The notes: generated by a model not told the origin, from the sequence alone. 64,000 nt of DNA from an uncultured Pseudoxanthomonas sp. (GCA_965653375.1 CBFGZY010000007.1:2614-66613), one strand, 5' to 3'; shown: positions 3,908-49,487, counted from the stretch's first letter. A program made the numbers and translations.

Positions 3908-4396
3908 TCAGCGGAAGGCGGCGTCGGCGGCGCGGCGCTCGGCGATCTCGGCTTCCAGCCGGTCTCCGATAGCCAGCAACTGCGGCTTGGTAACGATGTT
4001 CTGGCCACGCTTGTCGAAGTGGTACTCCAACAGATGCGTCTCCACGATCGAATCCACCGGGCAGCTCTCTTCGCAGAAGCCGCAGTAGATGCACTTGAAC
4101 AGATCGATGTCGTAGCGCGTGGTGCGGCGGGTGCCGTCCTCACGCGGGGCCGAGTCGATGGTGATGGCCAGCGCCGGGCAGACCGCTTCGCACAACTTGC
4201 AGGCGATGCAGCGCTCTTCGCCGTTGGGATAGCGGCGCAGCGCATGCAGCCCGCGGAAGCGCGGCGACTGCGGGAACTTCTCCATCGGGTACATCATCGT
4301 GTACTTCGGCTTGAAGGCGTACTTCAGCGTCAGCCACAAGCCCTGGGCAAGCTCCAGCAGCATCAGGCTCTTGAAGTAATGGACTACCTTATTCAT
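3908..4396 (-). CDS. nuoI: NADH-quinone oxidoreductase subunit I
   Basis: Two 4Fe-4S motifs, [12 protein letters not shown] and [12 protein letters not shown]; start taken at MNKVV. Confidence 0.97.
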
Positions 4397-4415
4397 CGCA
4401 GCATGCCCTTCAAAT

Positions 4416-5507
4416 TCATGCACCCTTCTCGAACACGCCGAAGAACGCCAACAACGCCGTCACCGCGATCCATGCGATGGTCAGCGGAATGAATACTTTC
4501 CAGCCCAGGCGCATGATCTGGTCGTAGCGGTAGCGCGGGAAGCTGGCGCGGAACCAGATGTAGGCGCTGGCGAAGAACAACACCTTCAGCAGCATCCAAG
4601 GCCAACCGCCCTTCCATACCCAATCCACCCACGGCGACACGTCACCGGTCACCCAACCCTGGATCGGGCTCAACCAGCCGCCAAGGAAGAAGATCGAGAC
4701 CAGGAAACTGACCAGGATCATGTTGGCGTATTCGGCCAGGAAGAACAGCGCGAACGCGGCGCCGGAGTATTCCACCATGTGGCCGGCAACGATTTCCGAC
4801 TCGCCTTCCACCACGTCGAACGGCGCGCGGTTGGTTTCGGCGACGCCCGACACCCAGTAGACGATGAACAACGGGAACAACGGCACCCAGAACCACTCCA
4901 GGAAACCGGCATCGCCCGCCTGCGCCATCACGATCTCGCTCAGGTTCAAGCTGCCCGCGGCGATCAGCACACCGACCAGGGCGAAGCCCATCGCGATTTC
5001 GTAGCTGACCACCTGCGCGGCGGAGCGCATCGCACCCAGGAACGCATACTTTGAGTTCGATGCCCAGCCGGCGATGATGATGCCGTACACGCCCATCGAG
5101 GTCATCGCCAACAGGTACAGCAGACCGGCATTGGCGTTGGACAGCACCAGCTTGGCGTCGAACGGCACCACCGCCCACGCGGCGAAAGCCGGCGCCAGTG
5201 TGATCAGCGGCGCGATGACATACATCGTCTTCTGCGCACTGCTGGGCTGGATGATTTCCTTGAACAGCAGTTTGAAGACGTCGGCGAAGGCCTGGAAGAT
5301 GCCCATGCCCACATACATCGGTCCGTGCCGCACGTGCATCCAACCGATCAGCTTGCGCTCCCATACCACGTAGAACGCGACCGCCACGATCACCGGCACG
5401 GCGATCGTCAGGATCTTCAATACGATCCACAGCACGGTACCGATGTCGCCCAGGCCGAAGAACCAATCGCGCAACGGACCTATCGCATTGATCAACAGTT
5501 CGTTCAT
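4416..5507 (-). CDS. nuoH: NADH-quinone oxidoreductase subunit H
   Basis: 363 aa; [20 protein letters not shown]...[15 protein letters not shown]. Confidence 0.98.
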
Positions 5508-19322: not shown

Positions 19323-20540
<1,218 letters not shown>

Positions 20541-22521: not shown

Positions 22522-23361
22522 TCAAGGAGAAGACAATGCGAATCCCTTCCGCGGCTCATCGTGCAGCGGATGCGCCTTGTCCAGCGTCACCTCGCCTGGC
22601 AACGCCCATTGCGCGGGATACAGCGGGCTGACGAAGACCAGCCCATCCGGCGGTGCCGTTGGGCCGGCCAGGGTACGGTCACGGCCGGCCAGCAATTCGC
22701 CGATCCATGTTTCTGGTTGTTCGCCTCGCCCCACCAGCAGCAGCGAGCCGACGATATTGCGCACCATGTGGTGCAGGAAGGCGTTGGCCTGCACTTCCAC
22801 GATCACCTGTTCACCCTCGCGGCGCACCGATATCGATTGCAGATCGCGATTGGGATGCGGCGCCTGGCAATGCACGGTGCGGAAGGCGCTGAAGTCGTTT
22901 TCGCCCAACAGGGCCTGCGCAGCGCGATGCATGGCGTCCGCATCCAGTGGCAGCCGCTCCCAACTCAGGTACTGCCGCTCCAAGGCCGGACGCACTGCAC
23001 GATTCAGGATGCGATAGCGATAGCGGCGCGCGCGGGCCGAAAAACGAGCGTGGAAATCTTCCGGCATCGGCTGGCACCAGAGCACGCTGATCGAAGGCGG
23101 CAACTGCGAGGTGGTACCCAGGACCCAGCCGCGCGGACTGCGCGGGGCATTGCTGTCGAAATGCACGACTTGGCATTGCGCATGTACGCCGGCATCCGTG
23201 CGGCCGGCGCAGACGGTGGCGATGGGTTCATTGGCCACGAACGACAGCGCGTTTTCCAATGCTGCCTGCACGGTGCTCGCATCCGGCGTGCCGAGCTTGC
23301 TCAACCGTTGCCAGCCCAGGAATTCGCCGCCGTCGTATTCGACGCCCAGCGCGTAACGCAT
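22522..23361 (-). CDS. truA: tRNA pseudouridine(38-40) synthase
   Basis: [42 protein letters not shown]. Confidence 0.98.
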
Positions 23362-23389
23362 CAGAACCTCACGCCAATATCAGCCTGTG

Positions 23390-25138
23390 TCAGCCAATCT
23401 CGCGCAACAGCTGCAAAGCTTCGTCGCGTGCACGATCGTCGCCGCCCACGGCGACTTCGTTCAACAGGTCGCGCGCAGTAGCTACGTCGCCCAGATCCAG
23501 ATAGGCGACAGCCAGTTCCAGCCGTTCGCGCCCTGCCGGGGCCGGATTAAGCGGTGCGACCGTCGCCGCGCTATCGCCGGAGTGCCACGCGGGCTTGGCC
23601 GCCGCCTGCACAGGCTTCGACGCGCGCGCGGGCACGTCTACGGCTGGCAACGGCGCGGGTTCCGTAGCTTCGTCGGCCTCTTCGCGTGCTTCGGTATCTT
23701 GCGCAGGCGGCGTGGCGTTGGGCATGGCCGCCACCAACGCAGCGCTGTCGAAAATCGGCGCGCGCGACGGCACGACCGGCGCCACCCGCTTGCGGCGTTG
23801 CGACCAGCCCCAGGCCAAGGCACCGATCAGCAGCAGGCCCAAGCCCGCCCACATCCATACCGGCACACCGCCATCGCCTTGCGATTGCGCCAGGCGCTGT
23901 TGCGCGGCAGCCAGATCGCTGTCCTTCATTGCCAACAATTGTTCCTGCTGCTGCTTCAGCTTTTCCAGCTCGGCCACTTGCGCGCGCAACTCTTGTAATT
24001 CGGTTTCGCGCGCAGCCAGATCTTCCCTGGTCTGTTGCAGTTGCTCGTTCGCCAGCATGTCGCCCTCGCCGCCGGCACTGATGCCGGACTGTGTGCCTGG
24101 TGTTGTTGCCGCACTCGCCGCGGGCGGCGCGATTTCCAGCCGCGCCTCGGCCACTTGCGGCGCGGACGAAGTGGATGCCGGTCGCTGCACCGTGTCGGCG
24201 ACTGCCGCCGGTTGTGGAATCGGCCTGCGCGCCTGTCGCCATTCGGCGATCTGACTGCGCACCAGCGCCGCCGCCTCGGCCTCCTGCAACTGGGTTACTT
24301 CGGCCGGCTGTGGCAAACGCAATACCGCACCCTGCTTCAGCAGATTGATGTTGCCGTTGATGAAGGCTTCCGGATTGGCCCGCAGCAACGCCACCATGGC
24401 CTGATCCAGCGAATAGCCTTGCTGCGCAGCCAACGGCGCAGCGATCTGCGACAGCGTCTGACCGCGGCGTACAGGTGCCATCGCGCTACCGGCGTCGAAC
24501 GATGGCGCCGGTGCGACAGGAGCCTCTTGCGCCTGCGGAGTGGATGCAGCGGAAGGAGCCGCAGCAACCGGAGGAGGCGCTTCGGGAGCCGCGGTGGGCT
24601 CGGGCGGAAGCTCCGTCATCGCCGCTTCCGGCGTACGGACAATGAGATCGCTGGGTGCCGCCACCGGGGCATCGATGGGCGGTTGCCCCGCCGCAGCCAA
24701 CGTATTGGGCGTACTGACCAGCGCCGAGTACTCACGCACCAGGCGCCCTTGGCCCCAATCGACTTCGATCAGGAAATTGACCGCCGCCACGTCGACCGGC
24801 GTCCGGCTGGTGACGCGTATGACCGGCCGCCCTGACTCGTCCAGCGCGACCGCGAAGTCCAGTTCGTTGACCAGTCCCTGCGGACGCGGCAGCCCCACTC
24901 GTTCGAAAGTGACGGGCGAAGCCAACCGCGCGCGCAGTTGTTCCAGCTCGCCAGGTTCGTTGGAGATAACGGGGATTTCGGCCAACAACGGTTGCCCGGG
25001 CTGCGACTTGACCCGGATTTCGCCCAGGCCCAGTGCCATCGCGGCGCTGCTGCACAGCGCCAACGCCAGCCCGATCCAATATGCCGATCGATGTCTTGCC
25101 GAACCCGACACAGCCTCTCCCCGTCCTATCCCGGCCAC
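23390..25138 (-). CDS. fimV: FimV/HubP-family polar landmark protein (start uncertain)
   Basis: LGLGEI.VKS..GQPL.AEI, LysM-like G.TL..IA...ANPEAF..GNINLLK.GAVL, TM helix, C-terminal LELAVAYLDLGD..TAR.LL.EV; asd-fimV-truA synteny. Confidence 0.9.
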   Translation of the reverse strand: MAGIGRGEAVSGSARHRSAYWIGLALALCSSAAMALGLGEIRVKSQPGQPLLAEIPVISNEPGELEQLRARLASPVTFERVGLPRPQGLVNELDFAVALDESGRPVIRVTSRTPVDVAAVNFLIEVDWGQGRLVREYSALVSTPNTLAAAGQPPIDAPVAAPSDLIVRTPEAAMTELPPEPTAAPEAPPPVAAAPSAASTPQAQEAPVAPAPSFDAGSAMAPVRRGQTLSQIAAPLAAQQGYSLDQAMVALLRANPEAFINGNINLLKQGAVLRLPQPAEVTQLQEAEAAALVRSQIAEWRQARRPIPQPAAVADTVQRPASTSSAPQVAEARLEIAPPAASAATTPGTQSGISAGGEGDMLANEQLQQTREDLAARETELQELRAQVAELEKLKQQQEQLLAMKDSDLAAAQQRLAQSQGDGGVPVWMWAGLGLLLIGALAWGWSQRRKRVAPVVPSRAPIFDSAALVAAMPNATPPAQDTEAREEADEATEPAPLPAVDVPARASKPVQAAAKPAWHSGDSAATVAPLNPAPAGRERLELAVAYLDLGDVATARDLLNEVAVGGDDRARDEALQLLREIG

Positions 25139-42259: not shown

Positions 42260-43306
42260 TCAGACCAGCGAGGAAGCGATAGGCATCGCGGCACGCGGCC
42301 GCATCGCCAGATGGGCCGCCATCATCCGGGCCGTATGGCGATAAGCCTGGGCAACGGCCGAATCCGGGGCCGCCACGACCACCGGCTGGCCGGCATCGCC
42401 ATGTTCGCGGATGGCGATGTCCAACGGCAGCGAACCCAGCAACGGCACCCCGTACTGCGCCGCCATCCGCTGGCCGCCACCTTCGCCGAACAGATGTTCG
42501 ACATGGCCGCAGTTGGAGCAGGTATGCACGGCCATGTTCTCCACGATACCCAGCACCGGAACTTCGACTTTCTCGAACATCTTCAGTGCCTTCCTGGCAT
42601 CAAGTGTCGCAATGTCTTGCGGCGTGGTGACGATGACCGCGCCTGCGACAGGTATCTTCTGCGCCAGGGTCAGCTGGATATCGCCCGTGCCCGGCGGCAG
42701 ATCGATCAGCAAGTAGTCCAGATCGCCCCATAGCGTATCGGTGAATAGTTGGGTCAACGCCGAAGTCGCCATCGGCCCGCGCCAGATCATCGGCGTGTCT
42801 TGATCCACCAAGAAGCCGATCGACATCGCTTCCACCCCGAAGGCTCGCATCGGCTCGATGGACTTGTTGTCCGGGCTGTCGGGTCGCCCGCTCAGCCCCA
42901 GCATGGTCGGCACGCTGGGTCCGTACACGTCCGCGTCCAGCACCCCGACTTTCGCGCCCTCGGCCTTCAGTGCCAGCGCCAGATTGACCGCGGTAGTCGA
43001 CTTCCCCACCCCGCCCTTGCCGGAGCCGATGGCGATGACGTTACGGACCCGGGGCAGTGGCGAGAGATTGGGCTGGACAGCATGGGATACGACGCGAAAA
43101 TCCAGCAGGAATTCCGCCAACTGGGTTCCCTCCGCGGCCAGCAGCGCTCCGACCTGGCGCTCGATGTCCTGCTTCAGCCCTAGAGCCGGGTAGCCCAGAG
43201 TCAGTCGGACCTGAGTGGCGGTCTTCGGCCCCTGCACTTGGAAATGGGCCTTCGTATCCCCCAACCGTACCCCCTCTGGGGCCTCTATTTGTGACAGCTG
43301 TTGCAC
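42260..43306 (-). CDS. apbC: Fe-S cluster carrier ATPase ApbC/Mrp (start uncertain)
   Basis: [38 protein letters not shown]...C..CG. Confidence 0.95.
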
Positions 43307-43503
43307 TAAATTGCCTTTGGATTGGATATTTTTGATAACTACGTCACATTTTCAAATGTAACAGTCGTAACATGGGTTGTGCTATGGGCGCAGTCGTTAA
43401 TGTCGTGTTAACGTCAGACCACAGGACATTTGACGTGCGGCAGGGACTGACGGACCAGTCCAACGGGGGCCGCATCACCTTCTAGTTTAGGGGATTCACA
43501 ACT
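43289..43503 (+). promoter_or_regulatory. Upstream regulatory cassette of TBDR-1 (copy 1 of a duplicated ~215-bp element)
   Basis: Aligns block-for-block with 46476-46691; includes the identical 24-mer TTTCAAATGTAACAGTCGTAACAT and GTTAA-N7-TTAAC. Confidence 0.85.
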
Positions 43504-46353
43504 ATGTCATTTCGGAATATGACTGCGCCCAAGCGTAGTCGATTGAGCGCGGCCATGTTTGCCGTATTGCTGCTGCCCGTCGCCGGGGTCACGCTGGCCC
43601 AAGAGGCTGACGACGCCACTCCGGATACCAGTAATCAAGCTTCCAAGCCGACTGCCACGCTGGACAAAGTCACCGTCACCGGCTCGCGCATCAAACGCGC
43701 CGAGATCGAAGGCCCTTCACCCGTAACCGTGATCACCTCGGAACAGATCGAGCGTGAAGGCTTCAATACCGTCTACGACGCGCTGAATACCTTGACTCAG
43801 GCGTCGGGCTCCACGCAGAACGAAGTCTTCCAAGGCGGATTCACCCCCAACGCCAGCGTCATCAACCTTCGCGGCTTGGGCCCGGGGCGTACGCTGCTGC
43901 TGATCAACGGCCGCCGTGCCGCCGACTATCCGTTGCCTTACAACGGCCAGAGCAACTTCGCTAATTTCGGCAACATTCCTGCCGCGGCGGTCGATCGGAT
44001 CGAACTGCTCGCAGGCGGCGCATCCGCAATCTATGGCTCGGACGCGGTGGCGGGCGTCGTCAACGTCATCCTGAAGACCAACTACGAAGGCGACTTGATC
44101 AAGTTGCGTGGCAGCACGACGAGCCAAGGTGGACGCGACCGCGGCGACTTGCAGTGGATCGGCGGCAAGACCGGCGACAAGTGGAGCGTGACCTACGCTT
44201 TCGAATACTTCGCCAGCGAACCGCTGTACGCCTATCAGCGCGACTTCATGGACTCCAGCCTGGACAATCCATTGCCGCCCGATTACGTGGGCATCCAACC
44301 GATCGGTACCATGCGCGTGCGCCGTCGCACCGGCTCCACTGCTGGTTCCTATTTCGCTCCGCCAGCCGGCGCCTGCGAGCAACTCGGCGACGAGTGGGTA
44401 CGCTGGAACTTCCGAAGTGCTAACACGGCTGGTGTCATCACCAACCTGGGCCAGGCCTGCGGCACGTTCAACGACGTGGGTTACCAAACCATCGACAACG
44501 GTAACAACGACCTGTCGGGCTACGCCTATGGCACCTTCGAATTCGACAACGGCATGCAGGGGTGGGCCAGCTTGCAAGCGTGGAAGTCGGAAGCAAAGTA
44601 CGGCGCAGGCACCCAGTTCTGGGGCGGCCGCACAACCGGCGCTTTGTGGTTCGACCAAGGCTTCAACAACCTGGTCGACGCACAGCGCGTCTTCACGCCA
44701 CAGGAAGCCGGCGGCGTCGAGAAGCTGCTTGCGAAAAACGACGAGCGATCTTTTGACCTGGCCGTCGGACTGCGTGGTCAGTTCGGCGAGCGTTTCGATT
44801 GGGACTTGACGCTGTCCCGCGCCGAGTACGACGTCGAGACCGATCGTCCTCGCCTGCTGTCCACAGCCGTCAACGACTACTTCCTGGGTCCGCAATTGGG
44901 CACCCGCGTCGTCGGTGGCGTGACGTACCCGGTATACAGGCTAAATCAGAGCCGGTACTACTCGGCACTGACTCCTGAGCAGTTCGCCTCGCTTAATACT
45001 GTCGTCAAAACGAAGGCCGAATCCTACGTAAACCAAGGCAGCTTTGTAGTGTCTGGCGATCTGTTCGAACTGCCGGCCGGCCCGTTGGGTTTCGCCGCAG
45101 TACTGGAAGCCTCTCAGCAAGAATACGACTTAACGGCCGATCCGCGGATCCTGCCCGACTATACGGGTACGGATCGCCCCTACAACCTCACCGGCACCGG
45201 TGGCGGTGGTCAACGCGATCGTTATGCCCTGGGTGTTGAGTTCTCGGTGCCGATCCTGGAATCGTTGAAAGGCAGCATCGCCGGCCGTTTTGACAAATAC
45301 GACGACGTAACCGCCGTGGACGATGCAAAAACCTGGAATGCCGGCCTGGAATGGCGTCCCGTAGACAACCTGCTGTTCCGCGGCTCCTATTCCACCAGCT
45401 TCCGCGCACCCGACATGCACTACGTGTTCGCTGAACGCAGCGGCTCTTTCAGTGCCATCCTCGATACTCGTCGCTGCCTGGAAAGCGGCAGAACCACCGC
45501 GCAATGTCCGTCGACCGACGTGGTCACCAACTACACTGCCTTCGGCGTTCGTCAAGGCACGACCGATCTGACCGAAGAAACCGGTAACTCGTGGACGGCC
45601 GGCATCGTGTGGGACATCATCGATGGCTTGTCGGTCAGCGCTGACTACTACGAAATCGAACTGGAAGATGCGGTTGCCGATATCACTACCGCATACATCC
45701 TGGATGCTGAAGCAGGTTGCGTTACCGGCCTAACGCGCACTCGTCAGCCTTTTACCTTAGGCGCACCGGGTTCGGCTTTCTGTAACGACATGATCTCGCG
45801 GGTTTCCCGCCTCAGCGCACCTGGCACTCCGAACGACGGCCAGATCACCGAAATCCGTCGTGGTCCCATCAACCGTGCTTACCAGAGTGTCTCGGGCATC
45901 GACGCCACGCTGGACTATCGCCTCGATACCGATCGCCTGGGTGATTTCCGCATCCAGGTTGGCTACTCGCACACACTCGAGCAGAAGACGTCGCAGTTCA
46001 AAGGCGATCCGATTCTCGACTATCGCGATGATCTGACCAACTTCGATTTCCGTAGCCGTATCCGTACAACGGCGACATGGACAAAGGACGACTGGCAAGC
46101 ATCGGTCTTTATGCTCCGATACGGCAGCCTACCGAACTGGCAGGAAACCGGCCGCATCGCTCCTTACTTCATCTGGAATACAAGCGTTGGCAAGCAGATA
46201 ACCGAAGATATGCAGGTCAACCTGTACGTCAATAACCTGTTCGACAAAACTCATCCGCGAGACGATGGGTTCAACAGCTATCCGTACTTCTGGCGGGCCT
46301 ACAGCCCGATCGGTCGTGAGATCGCTCTGGAACTCCAGTACAAGTTCAACTGA
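43504..46353 (+). CDS. TonB-dependent receptor 1
   Basis: Signal peptide; TonB box LDKVTVTGSRIKR; plug NLRGLG.GRTL.LINGRR and IELLAGGASAIYGSDAVAGVVNVI; C-terminal beta-strand LQYKFN. Confidence 0.96.
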   Translation: MSFRNMTAPKRSRLSAAMFAVLLLPVAGVTLAQEADDATPDTSNQASKPTATLDKVTVTGSRIKRAEIEGPSPVTVITSEQIEREGFNTVYDALNTLTQASGSTQNEVFQGGFTPNASVINLRGLGPGRTLLLINGRRAADYPLPYNGQSNFANFGNIPAAAVDRIELLAGGASAIYGSDAVAGVVNVILKTNYEGDLIKLRGSTTSQGGRDRGDLQWIGGKTGDKWSVTYAFEYFASEPLYAYQRDFMDSSLDNPLPPDYVGIQPIGTMRVRRRTGSTAGSYFAPPAGACEQLGDEWVRWNFRSANTAGVITNLGQACGTFNDVGYQTIDNGNNDLSGYAYGTFEFDNGMQGWASLQAWKSEAKYGAGTQFWGGRTTGALWFDQGFNNLVDAQRVFTPQEAGGVEKLLAKNDERSFDLAVGLRGQFGERFDWDLTLSRAEYDVETDRPRLLSTAVNDYFLGPQLGTRVVGGVTYPVYRLNQSRYYSALTPEQFASLNTVVKTKAESYVNQGSFVVSGDLFELPAGPLGFAAVLEASQQEYDLTADPRILPDYTGTDRPYNLTGTGGGGQRDRYALGVEFSVPILESLKGSIAGRFDKYDDVTAVDDAKTWNAGLEWRPVDNLLFRGSYSTSFRAPDMHYVFAERSGSFSAILDTRRCLESGRTTAQCPSTDVVTNYTAFGVRQGTTDLTEETGNSWTAGIVWDIIDGLSVSADYYEIELEDAVADITTAYILDAEAGCVTGLTRTRQPFTLGAPGSAFCNDMISRVSRLSAPGTPNDGQITEIRRGPINRAYQSVSGIDATLDYRLDTDRLGDFRIQVGYSHTLEQKTSQFKGDPILDYRDDLTNFDFRSRIRTTATWTKDDWQASVFMLRYGSLPNWQETGRIAPYFIWNTSVGKQITEDMQVNLYVNNLFDKTHPRDDGFNSYPYFWRAYSPIGREIALELQYKFN

Positions 46354-46377
46354 TCGTTGTCAGTGGAGTCACACCCA

Positions 46378-46403
46378 AAAAGCCCGGCGCAAGCCGGGCT
46401 TTT
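46378..46403 (+). terminator. Intrinsic terminator after TBDR-1 (bidirectional form)
   Basis: AAAAGCCCGGC-GCAA-GCCGGGCTTTT. Confidence 0.9.
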
Positions 46404-46475
46404 CGATTACAAGGGCGACAACGATCTGGCAACGACATCTGGCAATGCACGCAGAAAGCCTCGTGACGGCTTTTA

Positions 46476-46691
46476 TTGTGACGTAGACCTCACTAAACCG
46501 CGGTCATTTGGGCGATTTTTGAGACTTTCATCACAATTTCAAATGTAACAGTCGTAACATCACCTTGTGGTATGGGCGCGGTCGTTAATGTCATGTTAAC
46601 GTCGGTCCACAGGACATTTGACCGTGCGGTGGGACCAAAGGACGGGTCCTGGGGGCCGCATCACATCGGATCGTTTTAGGGGATTCACCAC
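46476..46691 (+). promoter_or_regulatory. Upstream regulatory cassette of TBDR-2 (copy 2)
   Basis: Paralogous to 43289-43503, with conserved spacing and covarying hairpins. Confidence 0.85.

Positions 46692-49487
<2,796 letters not shown>

Follow-up and report, generated by a model that had tools for sequence, protein, structure and literature searches.

A proposed promoter-leader module duplicated with tandem TonB-dependent receptor genes in an uncultured Pseudoxanthomonas sp.

The regulator Clp shares the DNA specificity of CRP and is released from DNA by cyclic di-GMP (c-di-GMP). CRP sites are centred at -61.5, -71.5, -82.5 or -92.5 in class I promoters and at -41.5 in class II promoters. 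In Xanthomonas, the engXCA promoter carries an upstream Clp site (PMC6430473). A layout like that of engXCA and of the class I CRP promoters of Escherichia coli, namely a 16-bp TGTGA-N6-TCACA-type dyad with A/T-rich flanks and a weak sigma-70 promoter downstream, can be recognized twice in a 64,000-nucleotide stretch of DNA from an uncultured Pseudoxanthomonas sp. (GCA_965653375.1 CBFGZY010000007.1:2614-66613), hereafter called the window. There it forms part of a cassette that precedes each of two tandem TonB-dependent receptor (TBDR) genes, TBDR1 and TBDR2. Each cassette is, with a probability of about 0.6, a copy of an ancestral promoter-leader module of one TBDR family of the Lysobacteraceae (Xanthomonadaceae sensu lato), with proposed control by Clp, by a factor acting at a TTAA element and by the 5' leader. 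As the standard promoter-leader module of this TBDR family, duplicated with the gene, the cassette is for the most part ordinary in kind; known kinds fail to account only for the orphan TTAA element in it.

Both copies of the cassette were found where a preliminary description of this DNA had placed them, and that description was accurate. The limits it gave were too narrow. The two copies align at about 83% column identity, with three small indels, from their upstream ends to both ATG codons, so the homology runs about 90 nt past the ends originally given (43412 and 46600). Since it reaches the start codons (after 43503 and 46691), the unit comprises about 215 nt rather than 124 nt and includes the 5' leader. 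A whole-genome DNA search with the cassette returned no copy beyond these two. Within the window, a 24-mer (TTTCAAATGTAACAGTCGTAACAT) occurs exactly twice, as does GTTAA-N7-TTAAC (43396-43412 and 46584-46600), with none expected of either (for the 24-mer, from shuffled sequences). In the 4.3-Mb genome, the 15-nt core of the 24-mer (GTAACAGTCGTAACA) is likewise present exactly twice, and the string TTGTGsTATGGGCGC is confined to the two cassettes.

Related loci were gathered by a DNA search of 60 relatives, by a protein-guided scan with one genome per species and by a pattern search of 301 genomes of the bacterial family. Fifty-two non-identical promoters from many genera (26 in the first set) were anchored on the motif for the alignment of the core. 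The core common to the family reads cGTTAAnnnCRTGTTAAsgT, and the anchored consensus of the 52 promoters is aTGaCA-N6-TTAA-nnn-C-R-TG-T-TAA-n-T-T-C. The TG of an extended -10 is present in 51 of them and TAnnnT in 50; both copies in the window read TGT-TAACGT. Exactly 18 nt before the -10, 30 of the 52 match TTGACA at four or more of its six bases, against a background of 4%. The core is thus a predicted sigma-70 promoter of the extended -10 type (TG-n-TAAnnT) with a -35 18 nt upstream that is weak in this genome. Because of this alignment, the second half of the GTTAA-N7-TTAAC palindrome is assigned to the extended -10, and TTGTG(C/G)TATGGGCGC, earlier listed as a protein-binding box, to the degenerate -35 region. 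The palindrome had also been listed as an operator. The string is real and conserved, but it lies over the spacer and extended -10 within the core promoter.

The TTAA at about -24 to -21 is conserved in 95-99% of the family promoters. Neither this element nor the C at -17 is explained by sigma-70 recognition, as judged from the aligned promoters. The perfect palindrome keeps its flanking G...C only within Pseudoxanthomonas, and the conserved unit is therefore TTAA-N7-TTAA. The pattern TTAANNNCRTGTTAA was found in 78 of the 301 genomes and in 25 of 64 genera, with 88 hits compared with about 12 for a reversed control. Of 30 sampled hits, 23 have the start of a TBDR of the family 30-110 nt downstream, mostly at about 60-110 nt; about 19 of the 30 are divergent from apbC and three lie behind another TBDR of the family. 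A genome scan had been suggested as a way to define a regulon, and none emerged: with a position weight matrix of the motif, the two cassettes score 34.9 and 32.7, and the next best site in the genome itself 19.7. Genome-wide searches with this matrix, the core of the 24-mer, GTAAC-N4-GTAAC and TTGTGsTATGGGCGC gave no further convincing sites. TTAA-N7-TTAA-like strings do stand upstream of about 10 of 55 TBDR genes, with differing detail and differing distance to the start codon, and these may be merely AT-rich promoters. As the matrix finds only the two cassettes and most of the sampled pattern hits precede TBDRs of the family, the motif is taken to be private to this family and not part of a larger regulon.

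The preliminary description held that no regulator is encoded nearby and that control is in trans, and this was borne out. No transcription-factor domain, LysR or other helix-turn-helix, was detected in the open reading frames (ORFs) scanned at 29.8-64 kb of the window, which argues for control in trans. Similarly, no regulator gene was seen beside the motif in the loci sampled elsewhere: clustering of the neighbourhoods of 31 loci, and inspection of 1.5 kb of upstream DNA at a further 30, gave only apbC, dcd, TBDRs and the S9 peptidase. It is tentatively proposed, at somewhat less than even odds, that an undescribed, unlinked regulator serves a single TBDR family (likely a peptide-scavenging locus beside apbC) and has TTAA-N7-TTAA, fused to the extended -10, as its operator. 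This operator would be conserved in at least 25 Lysobacteraceae genera and combined with a GGA-loop leader in a two-layer module that travels with each paralogue. The core resembles extended -10 (TGn) sigma-70 promoters with an operator over the spacer or the -10 in having TG at -15/-14, TAnnnT and an optional or weak -35. As in such promoters, a conserved extra element lies between the -35 and the -10, where a repressor would occlude RNA polymerase. A difference from the known examples is that the analysis could name no operator matching TTAA-N7-TTAA, whose second half is fused to the -10; the element is also confined to a single TBDR family across at least 25 genera, and the factor would be unlinked. 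A literature search for a known factor for the motif found nothing specific.

Several other readings of the motif were tried and rejected. The PhoP box of enterobacteria, with the consensus (T/G)GTTTA-N5-(T/G)GTTTA, normally replaces the -35. The arrangement cGTTAA-N5-TGTTAA is likewise a hexamer-N5-hexamer direct repeat with 11-bp periodicity, and its second half matches at five of six positions; however, this second half coincides with the extended -10, and a further -10 is not found downstream. Sites for sigma-54, extracytoplasmic function (ECF)-type sigma factors, RpoH, Fur, Zur, IHF, Fis and TyrR, compared by eye with consensus sequences, misfit in spacing or key bases, and the single Zur-like string that turned up in the genome (C2:116429) is unlike the motif. 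A promoter on the minus strand was also rejected; it would have no A at position 2 of the -10, and the motif also occurs where there is no divergent gene. In two related Xanthomonas sp. loci (L017:3720-4000 and L018), an orthologue is found without the TTAA core and with a GTAACG-N11-CGTTAC inverted repeat upstream instead. The control region therefore seems to have been replaced in this lineage.

Upstream of the core, the 24-mer with its TGTAA-N6-TAACA had been described as a CRP/Clp-like site. It matches the CRP consensus at 8 of 10 positions but has no dyad symmetry. The half-sites TGTAA and TAACA do not form an inverted repeat, and A stands at each of the two critical G/C positions. Because the symmetry and both critical G/C pairs are missing, the 24-mer is not regarded as Clp-like. 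It contains instead the direct repeat GTAACA-GTC-GTAACA. The form GTAAC-N4-(G/A)TAAC, at about -56, is kept at the same position in Pseudoxanthomonas-type promoters only, not beyond the genus.

The predicted Clp/CRP-type site is the second box of the cassette, which had been given as ATTTTTGA-N8-TCACA, a parsing two bases off. When TGTGA-N6-TCACA was scored across the 130 nt upstream of the core, matches of at least 9/10 were obtained in eight promoters, all of the Pseudoxanthomonas type, compared with 0.18 per set for a shuffle null. All eight boxes are centred 57.5 (±2) nt upstream of TTAA, that is, at about -81.5 from the predicted start, which is within 1 bp of a class I position as counted from a predicted transcription start. 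At the same alignment position, five relatives have 10/10 matches and two others 9/10; in the sister-strain cassette (locus L084), the Clp box is perfect (TGTGACGTATTTCACA). As in Xanthomonas, the genome encodes a Clp orthologue, located on contig C13 (about 4000-4700, minus strand). With E = 1.9e-124 it matches Xanthomonas Clp (PDB 3IWZ), and the alignment shows no change through the C-terminal DNA-binding region (RVSRQELARLVGCSREMAGRVLKKL). The second box has the dyad and the genome has the cognate regulator, as would be expected of a Clp/CRP-type site. Unlike those of the relatives, which are perfect, the predicted boxes of the window are degenerate (8/10 and 9/10).

Downstream of the core, each cassette continues into a predicted 83-nt leader. 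A two-helix hairpin (P1/P2) is present in the minimum free energy folds of the leaders. Compensatory pairs are found at positions 4 and 6 of P1 and at positions 2-5 of P2, with one mismatch among nine sequences, and the hairpin loop contains GGA or GGG in all nine. Around the ribosome-binding site, UUUAGGGGAUUCAC is invariant within the genus and includes the Shine-Dalgarno (SD) sequence AGGGGAU; several other genera share the TAGGGGA core. Outside the genus the leaders differ, and AGG or GGA again stands in a small hairpin (e.g. CGCCAAGGUCGGCA). With a GGA in the loop and a GGA overlapping the SD, the predicted leader matches the anatomy of RsmA/CsrA targets. The covarying stem, the GGA or GGG of the loop, the invariant SD region and an ACAGGAC near the 5' end are all shared with CsrA/RsmA-controlled leaders; unlike these, the leaders have an unremarkable folding energy, and the likeness is one of sequence anatomy. 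An Rfam search gave no match in the cassettes, and only two chance-level BSnc120 hits (E about 0.2), in the hairpins after TBDR1 and TBDR2. A conserved upstream ORF starting at the invariant ATG/GTG was considered and rejected; the ORFs vary in length (2 to more than 52 codons) and encode no conserved peptide.

Each paralogue of the tandem arrays beside apbC retains its own copy of the module. In the proposed mechanism, Clp, at its class-I-like position, would help the weak promoter and thus couple it to c-di-GMP and diffusible signal factor (DSF) signalling. An unlinked factor dedicated to the family would bind TTAA-N7-TTAA over the spacer and the -10 and gate transcription, most simply by repressing it. 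The GTAAC repeats may be the site of a further factor, and the GGA motifs of the leader may tune translation in the manner of RsmA/CsrA. The boxes would be held by purifying selection, and the cassettes would move and recombine with the genes. Several points weigh against this scheme. The -35 in the window, TGGGCG, matches the consensus at only three of six positions, and the spacer is 18 nt long. All positions relative to +1 are predictions, the starts being placed at about 43421 and 46609, 7 nt past the -10. Clp may bind poorly to the box of copy 1, which scores 8/10 and has no second G in its TGTGA half. A sigma-70-like match on the minus strand, TTGAAA-16-AAAAAT, brackets the Clp box in both copies (43328-43355 and 46515-46542) and in copy 1 may be the apbC promoter. 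The leaders fold no more stably than shuffled sequences (z = -0.7 to -1.2), and no candidate protein was found for TTAA-N7-TTAA or for the GTAAC repeats. Also, TTAA could be a spacer element of the core promoter rather than an operator.

In that last case, which is unlikely, TTAA at -24 to -21 and the C at -17 would form a spacer or 'Z-like' element that is touched by RNA polymerase and offsets the 18-nt spacer and the weak -35, and no dedicated factor would exist. The motif does lie at a fixed distance from the extended -10 in all 52 promoters, no linked regulator gene was seen in any genus, and the R at -16 fits TRTG, the known '-16 region' promoter motif. However, a general polymerase element should recur, whereas the matrix finds two sites in the genome and the pattern is nearly restricted to the family. 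The restriction of TTAA to one gene family argues instead for a dedicated factor, as in the operator proposed above.

The similarity of the two cassettes could also be due merely to recent duplication, horizontal insertion or gene conversion, the 'boxes' then being stretches that have not yet mutated. The histories of promoters and coding sequences do disagree, as far as can be judged from identities, and promoter identity is decoupled from that of the coding sequence. Cassette 1 is 74-88% identical to the cassettes of clade-B genes (copy 2 and loci L031 and L008; 0.74/0.82 with copy 2), but only 52-72% identical (0.52/0.72) to the cassette of its own protein orthologue, L015, despite 82% protein identity. 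TBDR1 and TBDR2 themselves are 52% identical as proteins (49% in the promoter-versus-protein comparison). In the sister strain (L084:2246-5582; Logan DRR783068 contig), apbC and TBDR1 are followed directly by the S9 peptidase, and TBDR2 is absent. TBDR2 and copy 2 are thus either an insertion in the lineage of the window or a loss in that of L084.

Copy 2 also bears a trace of apbC in box 1, the first box of the cassette. It was stated earlier that box 1 of copy 1 overlaps the apbC start, and it is indeed the reverse complement of the start and the first six codons. Over 120 nt, 21 of 26 differences between the apbC of the window and its L031 orthologue fall at third codon positions, and the N-terminus is conserved. 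The '17-nt spacer' of copy 1 that follows holds the apbC ribosome-binding site in the 5' untranslated region (5'UTR). In copy 2, box 1 is a decayed relic of an apbC 5' end. The exact 7-mers of box 1, TTGTGAC and CACTAAA, stand in register with the homologous block in both copies, so the homology is real. Being apbC coding sequence in one copy and a relic in the other, box 1 is taken as evidence that the cassette originated beside apbC and not as a demonstrated operator, as had been thought. No apbC relic was found upstream of second-position TBDRs in other species. Formally, box 1 is TGTGA-N8-(G/T)CAC, with a spacing unusual for CRP and a centre 41 bp upstream of box 2; a role as such a site is speculative. 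The disagreement of the histories, the absence of TBDR2 from the sister strain and the apbC relic in copy 2 together suggest that transfer or recombination brought TBDR2, with its cassette, from a position next to apbC. In L031 (3790-4003) and L008, each with a single TBDR beside apbC, the cassette is a mosaic of copy-1-like and copy-2-like informative sites. Recombination between cassettes fits this mosaic, and the cassettes are direct repeats flanking a gene.

The decoupled identities, the apbC relic and the absence of TBDR2 from the closest relative found all favour recent duplication or exchange as the source of the similarity. As a sufficient explanation it is nevertheless improbable. Columns that are identical between the copies are more conserved than differing ones in 8-10 other promoters of the genus (0.75 vs 0.55; Mann-Whitney p = 3e-9), which shows that the pattern of conserved boxes and diverged spacers exceeds chance. 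Differences between the copies thus fall at positions that vary between species, and the boxes are kept in the 8-10 other species; the core motif is conserved over 25 genera. A 25-nt block at random-level identity between perfect 7-mers does not suit uniform recent divergence. The orthologous cassette of L084 is 75% identical although the TBDR1 coding sequence is 92% identical, and every box in it is kept. Also, in the arrays of L015, L022, L016 and L021, every second or third TBDR gene has a cassette of its own. The preliminary description had called the duplication a natural footprint and had named conservation upstream of orthologous TBDRs as a check; the boxes are conserved in orthologous and paralogous promoters alike, although several of the factors assigned to them were wrong. 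Both purifying selection on the boxes and mobility or recombination of the cassettes contribute to the similarity of the copies.

A LysR recognition site is usually a 4-N7-4 dyad, such as ATAC-N7-GTAT, placed at about -65, with an activation site near -35 and a divergent LysR gene. It is very doubtful that GTTAA-N7-TTAAC is such a site, for all the resemblance of its 4-N7-4 layout. The fit to T-N11-A that had been pointed out is trivial, the string spans -24 to -10 and so covers the spacer and the -10 and not -65 or -35, and neither the window nor the loci sampled in other genera showed a LysR gene beside the motif. In addition, only TTAA...TTAA, which is both a direct and an inverted repeat, is kept outside Pseudoxanthomonas. 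A cis-regulatory RNA started upstream of TTAA, with GTTAA/TTAAC as its first hairpin and the downstream part included, can be dismissed as highly improbable: RNAalifold does pair columns 1-19 (CGTTAAT...GTTAACG) of the genus alignment with one compensatory change, but the pairing possible family-wide is limited to TTAA/TTAA (four A-U pairs), without covariation of the flanks, the upstream DNA has no acceptable promoter and the motif lies between the -35 and -10 signals, and neither a conserved upstream ORF at the conserved ATG/GTG nor an Rfam hit was found.

Table 1. Features of the tandem receptor locus, in coordinates of the window; sites and leaders are predictions.
Feature	Position	Strand	Description and basis
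apbC	42260..43306	-	Divergent from TBDR1; shares intergenic region with cassette copy 1
Cassette copy 1	43289..43503	+	Promoter and 5' leader of TBDR1; alignment to copy 2
Box 1, copy 1	43289..43310	-	apbC GTG start (43306-43304), codons 1-6 (MQQLSQ) and 4 nt of 5'UTR; comparison with L031 orthologue
Clp/CRP-type box, copy 1	43332..43347	.	TGATA-ACTACG-TCACA, 8/10; centre about -81.5 from predicted start
Direct repeat, copy 1	43358..43372	+	GTAACA-GTC-GTAACA, core of 24-mer (43350-43373); about -63 to -49; unique to cassettes in genome
Degenerate -35	43385..43390	+	TGGGCG, inside TTGTGCTATGGGCGC box; alignment with aTGaCA or gTGGCA of other genera, 18 nt upstream of -10
Core, copy 1	43397..43414	+	TTAA-N5-TG-T-TAACGT; TTAA at -24..-21; TG 43406-7; -10 TAACGT 43409-14; contains the 'palindrome'
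Leader of TBDR1	43421..43503	+	Predicted, 83 nt; ACAGGAC motif near 5' end; P1/P2 hairpin 43435-43475, loop ACGGAC; TTTAGGGGATTCAC 43486-43499 including SD
TBDR1	43504..46353	+	949 aa; clade A of family; plug and barrel domains, tree
Likely terminator	46376..46408	+	Hairpin and T-run, AAAAAGCCCGGCGCAAGCCGGGCTTTT; 3' of TBDR1, read from sequence
Cassette copy 2	46476..46691	+	Promoter and 5' leader of TBDR2; alignment to copy 1
Box 1, copy 2	46476..46497	-	Decayed apbC 5' relic, GTG AGG TCT ACG TCA CAA TAA; six sense codons, then stop
Clp/CRP-type box, copy 2	46520..46535	.	TGAGA-CTTTCA-TCACA, 9/10; same alignment position
Direct repeat, copy 2	46545..46559	+	GTAACA-GTC-GTAACA, in 24-mer (46537-46560); identical to copy 1
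Core, copy 2	46573..46602	+	-35 TGGGCG 46573-78; TTAA 46585-88; TG 46594-95; -10 TAACGT 46597-46602
Leader of TBDR2	46609..46691	+	Predicted, 83 nt; hairpin 46624-46661, loop AAAGGACG; TTTAGGGGATTCAC 46675-46688
TBDR2	46692..49487	+	931 aa; divergent clade-B-like paralogue; absent from closest relative found

The tandem genes are flanked by the divergent apbC on one side and by an S9 peptidase, a Sel1 protein and metG on the other. The order dcd-apbC, then one to three divergently transcribed TBDRs and often then an S9 peptidase is a recurrent one, and the dcd-apbC-TBDR arrangement was seen in Pseudoxanthomonas, Lysobacter, Luteimonas, Stenotrophomonas, Vulcaniibacterium, Arenimonas and further Lysobacterales. 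Homologues of the receptor bear generic database names only, from which no receptor function could be taken. TBDR2 would need a promoter of its own because a likely terminator follows TBDR1; against the plus-strand call, a terminator scan called the hairpin 3' of TBDR1 (46381-46395) only as a terminator-like site of the minus strand. A second small hairpin, AAAGCC-TCGTGAC-GGCTTT followed by TATT, lies at 46450-46476 between this terminator and copy 2, at the edge of the homology. The minus-strand TTGAAA-16-AAAAAT of copy 2 would yield an antisense transcript into the 3' end of TBDR1. In apbC, which has a GTG start, an N-terminal extension of about 50 aa precedes the match to the ApbC model (residues 51-335); the extension is kept in L031 and absent from L022. 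Outside the window, contig C17 of the same genome holds a second tandem TBDR pair (N-termini MNCKTTKLR and MNCKTNKLR) with a duplicated upstream cassette at about 19880-20170 and 23180-23470, which reads TTTAATTCTTyC...CTAnnATCnGGCTACCCC. As this pair also shares a promoter module, duplicated modules seem to be common in TBDR arrays.

The analysis provides a precise, testable control map for a widespread, unstudied TBDR family located beside apbC and often followed by an S9 peptidase, and it corrects which box is the predicted Clp site. It is useful to specialists and not surprising in kind. In addition, it exposes an orphan, family-private TTAA spacer element, and the factor that would bind it could be fished with a 20-bp probe. 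A portable promoter-leader cassette stays with each of the tandem TBDR paralogues and is apparently exchanged between them, which helps to explain the expansion and contraction of TBDR arrays in Xanthomonadaceae-like bacteria.

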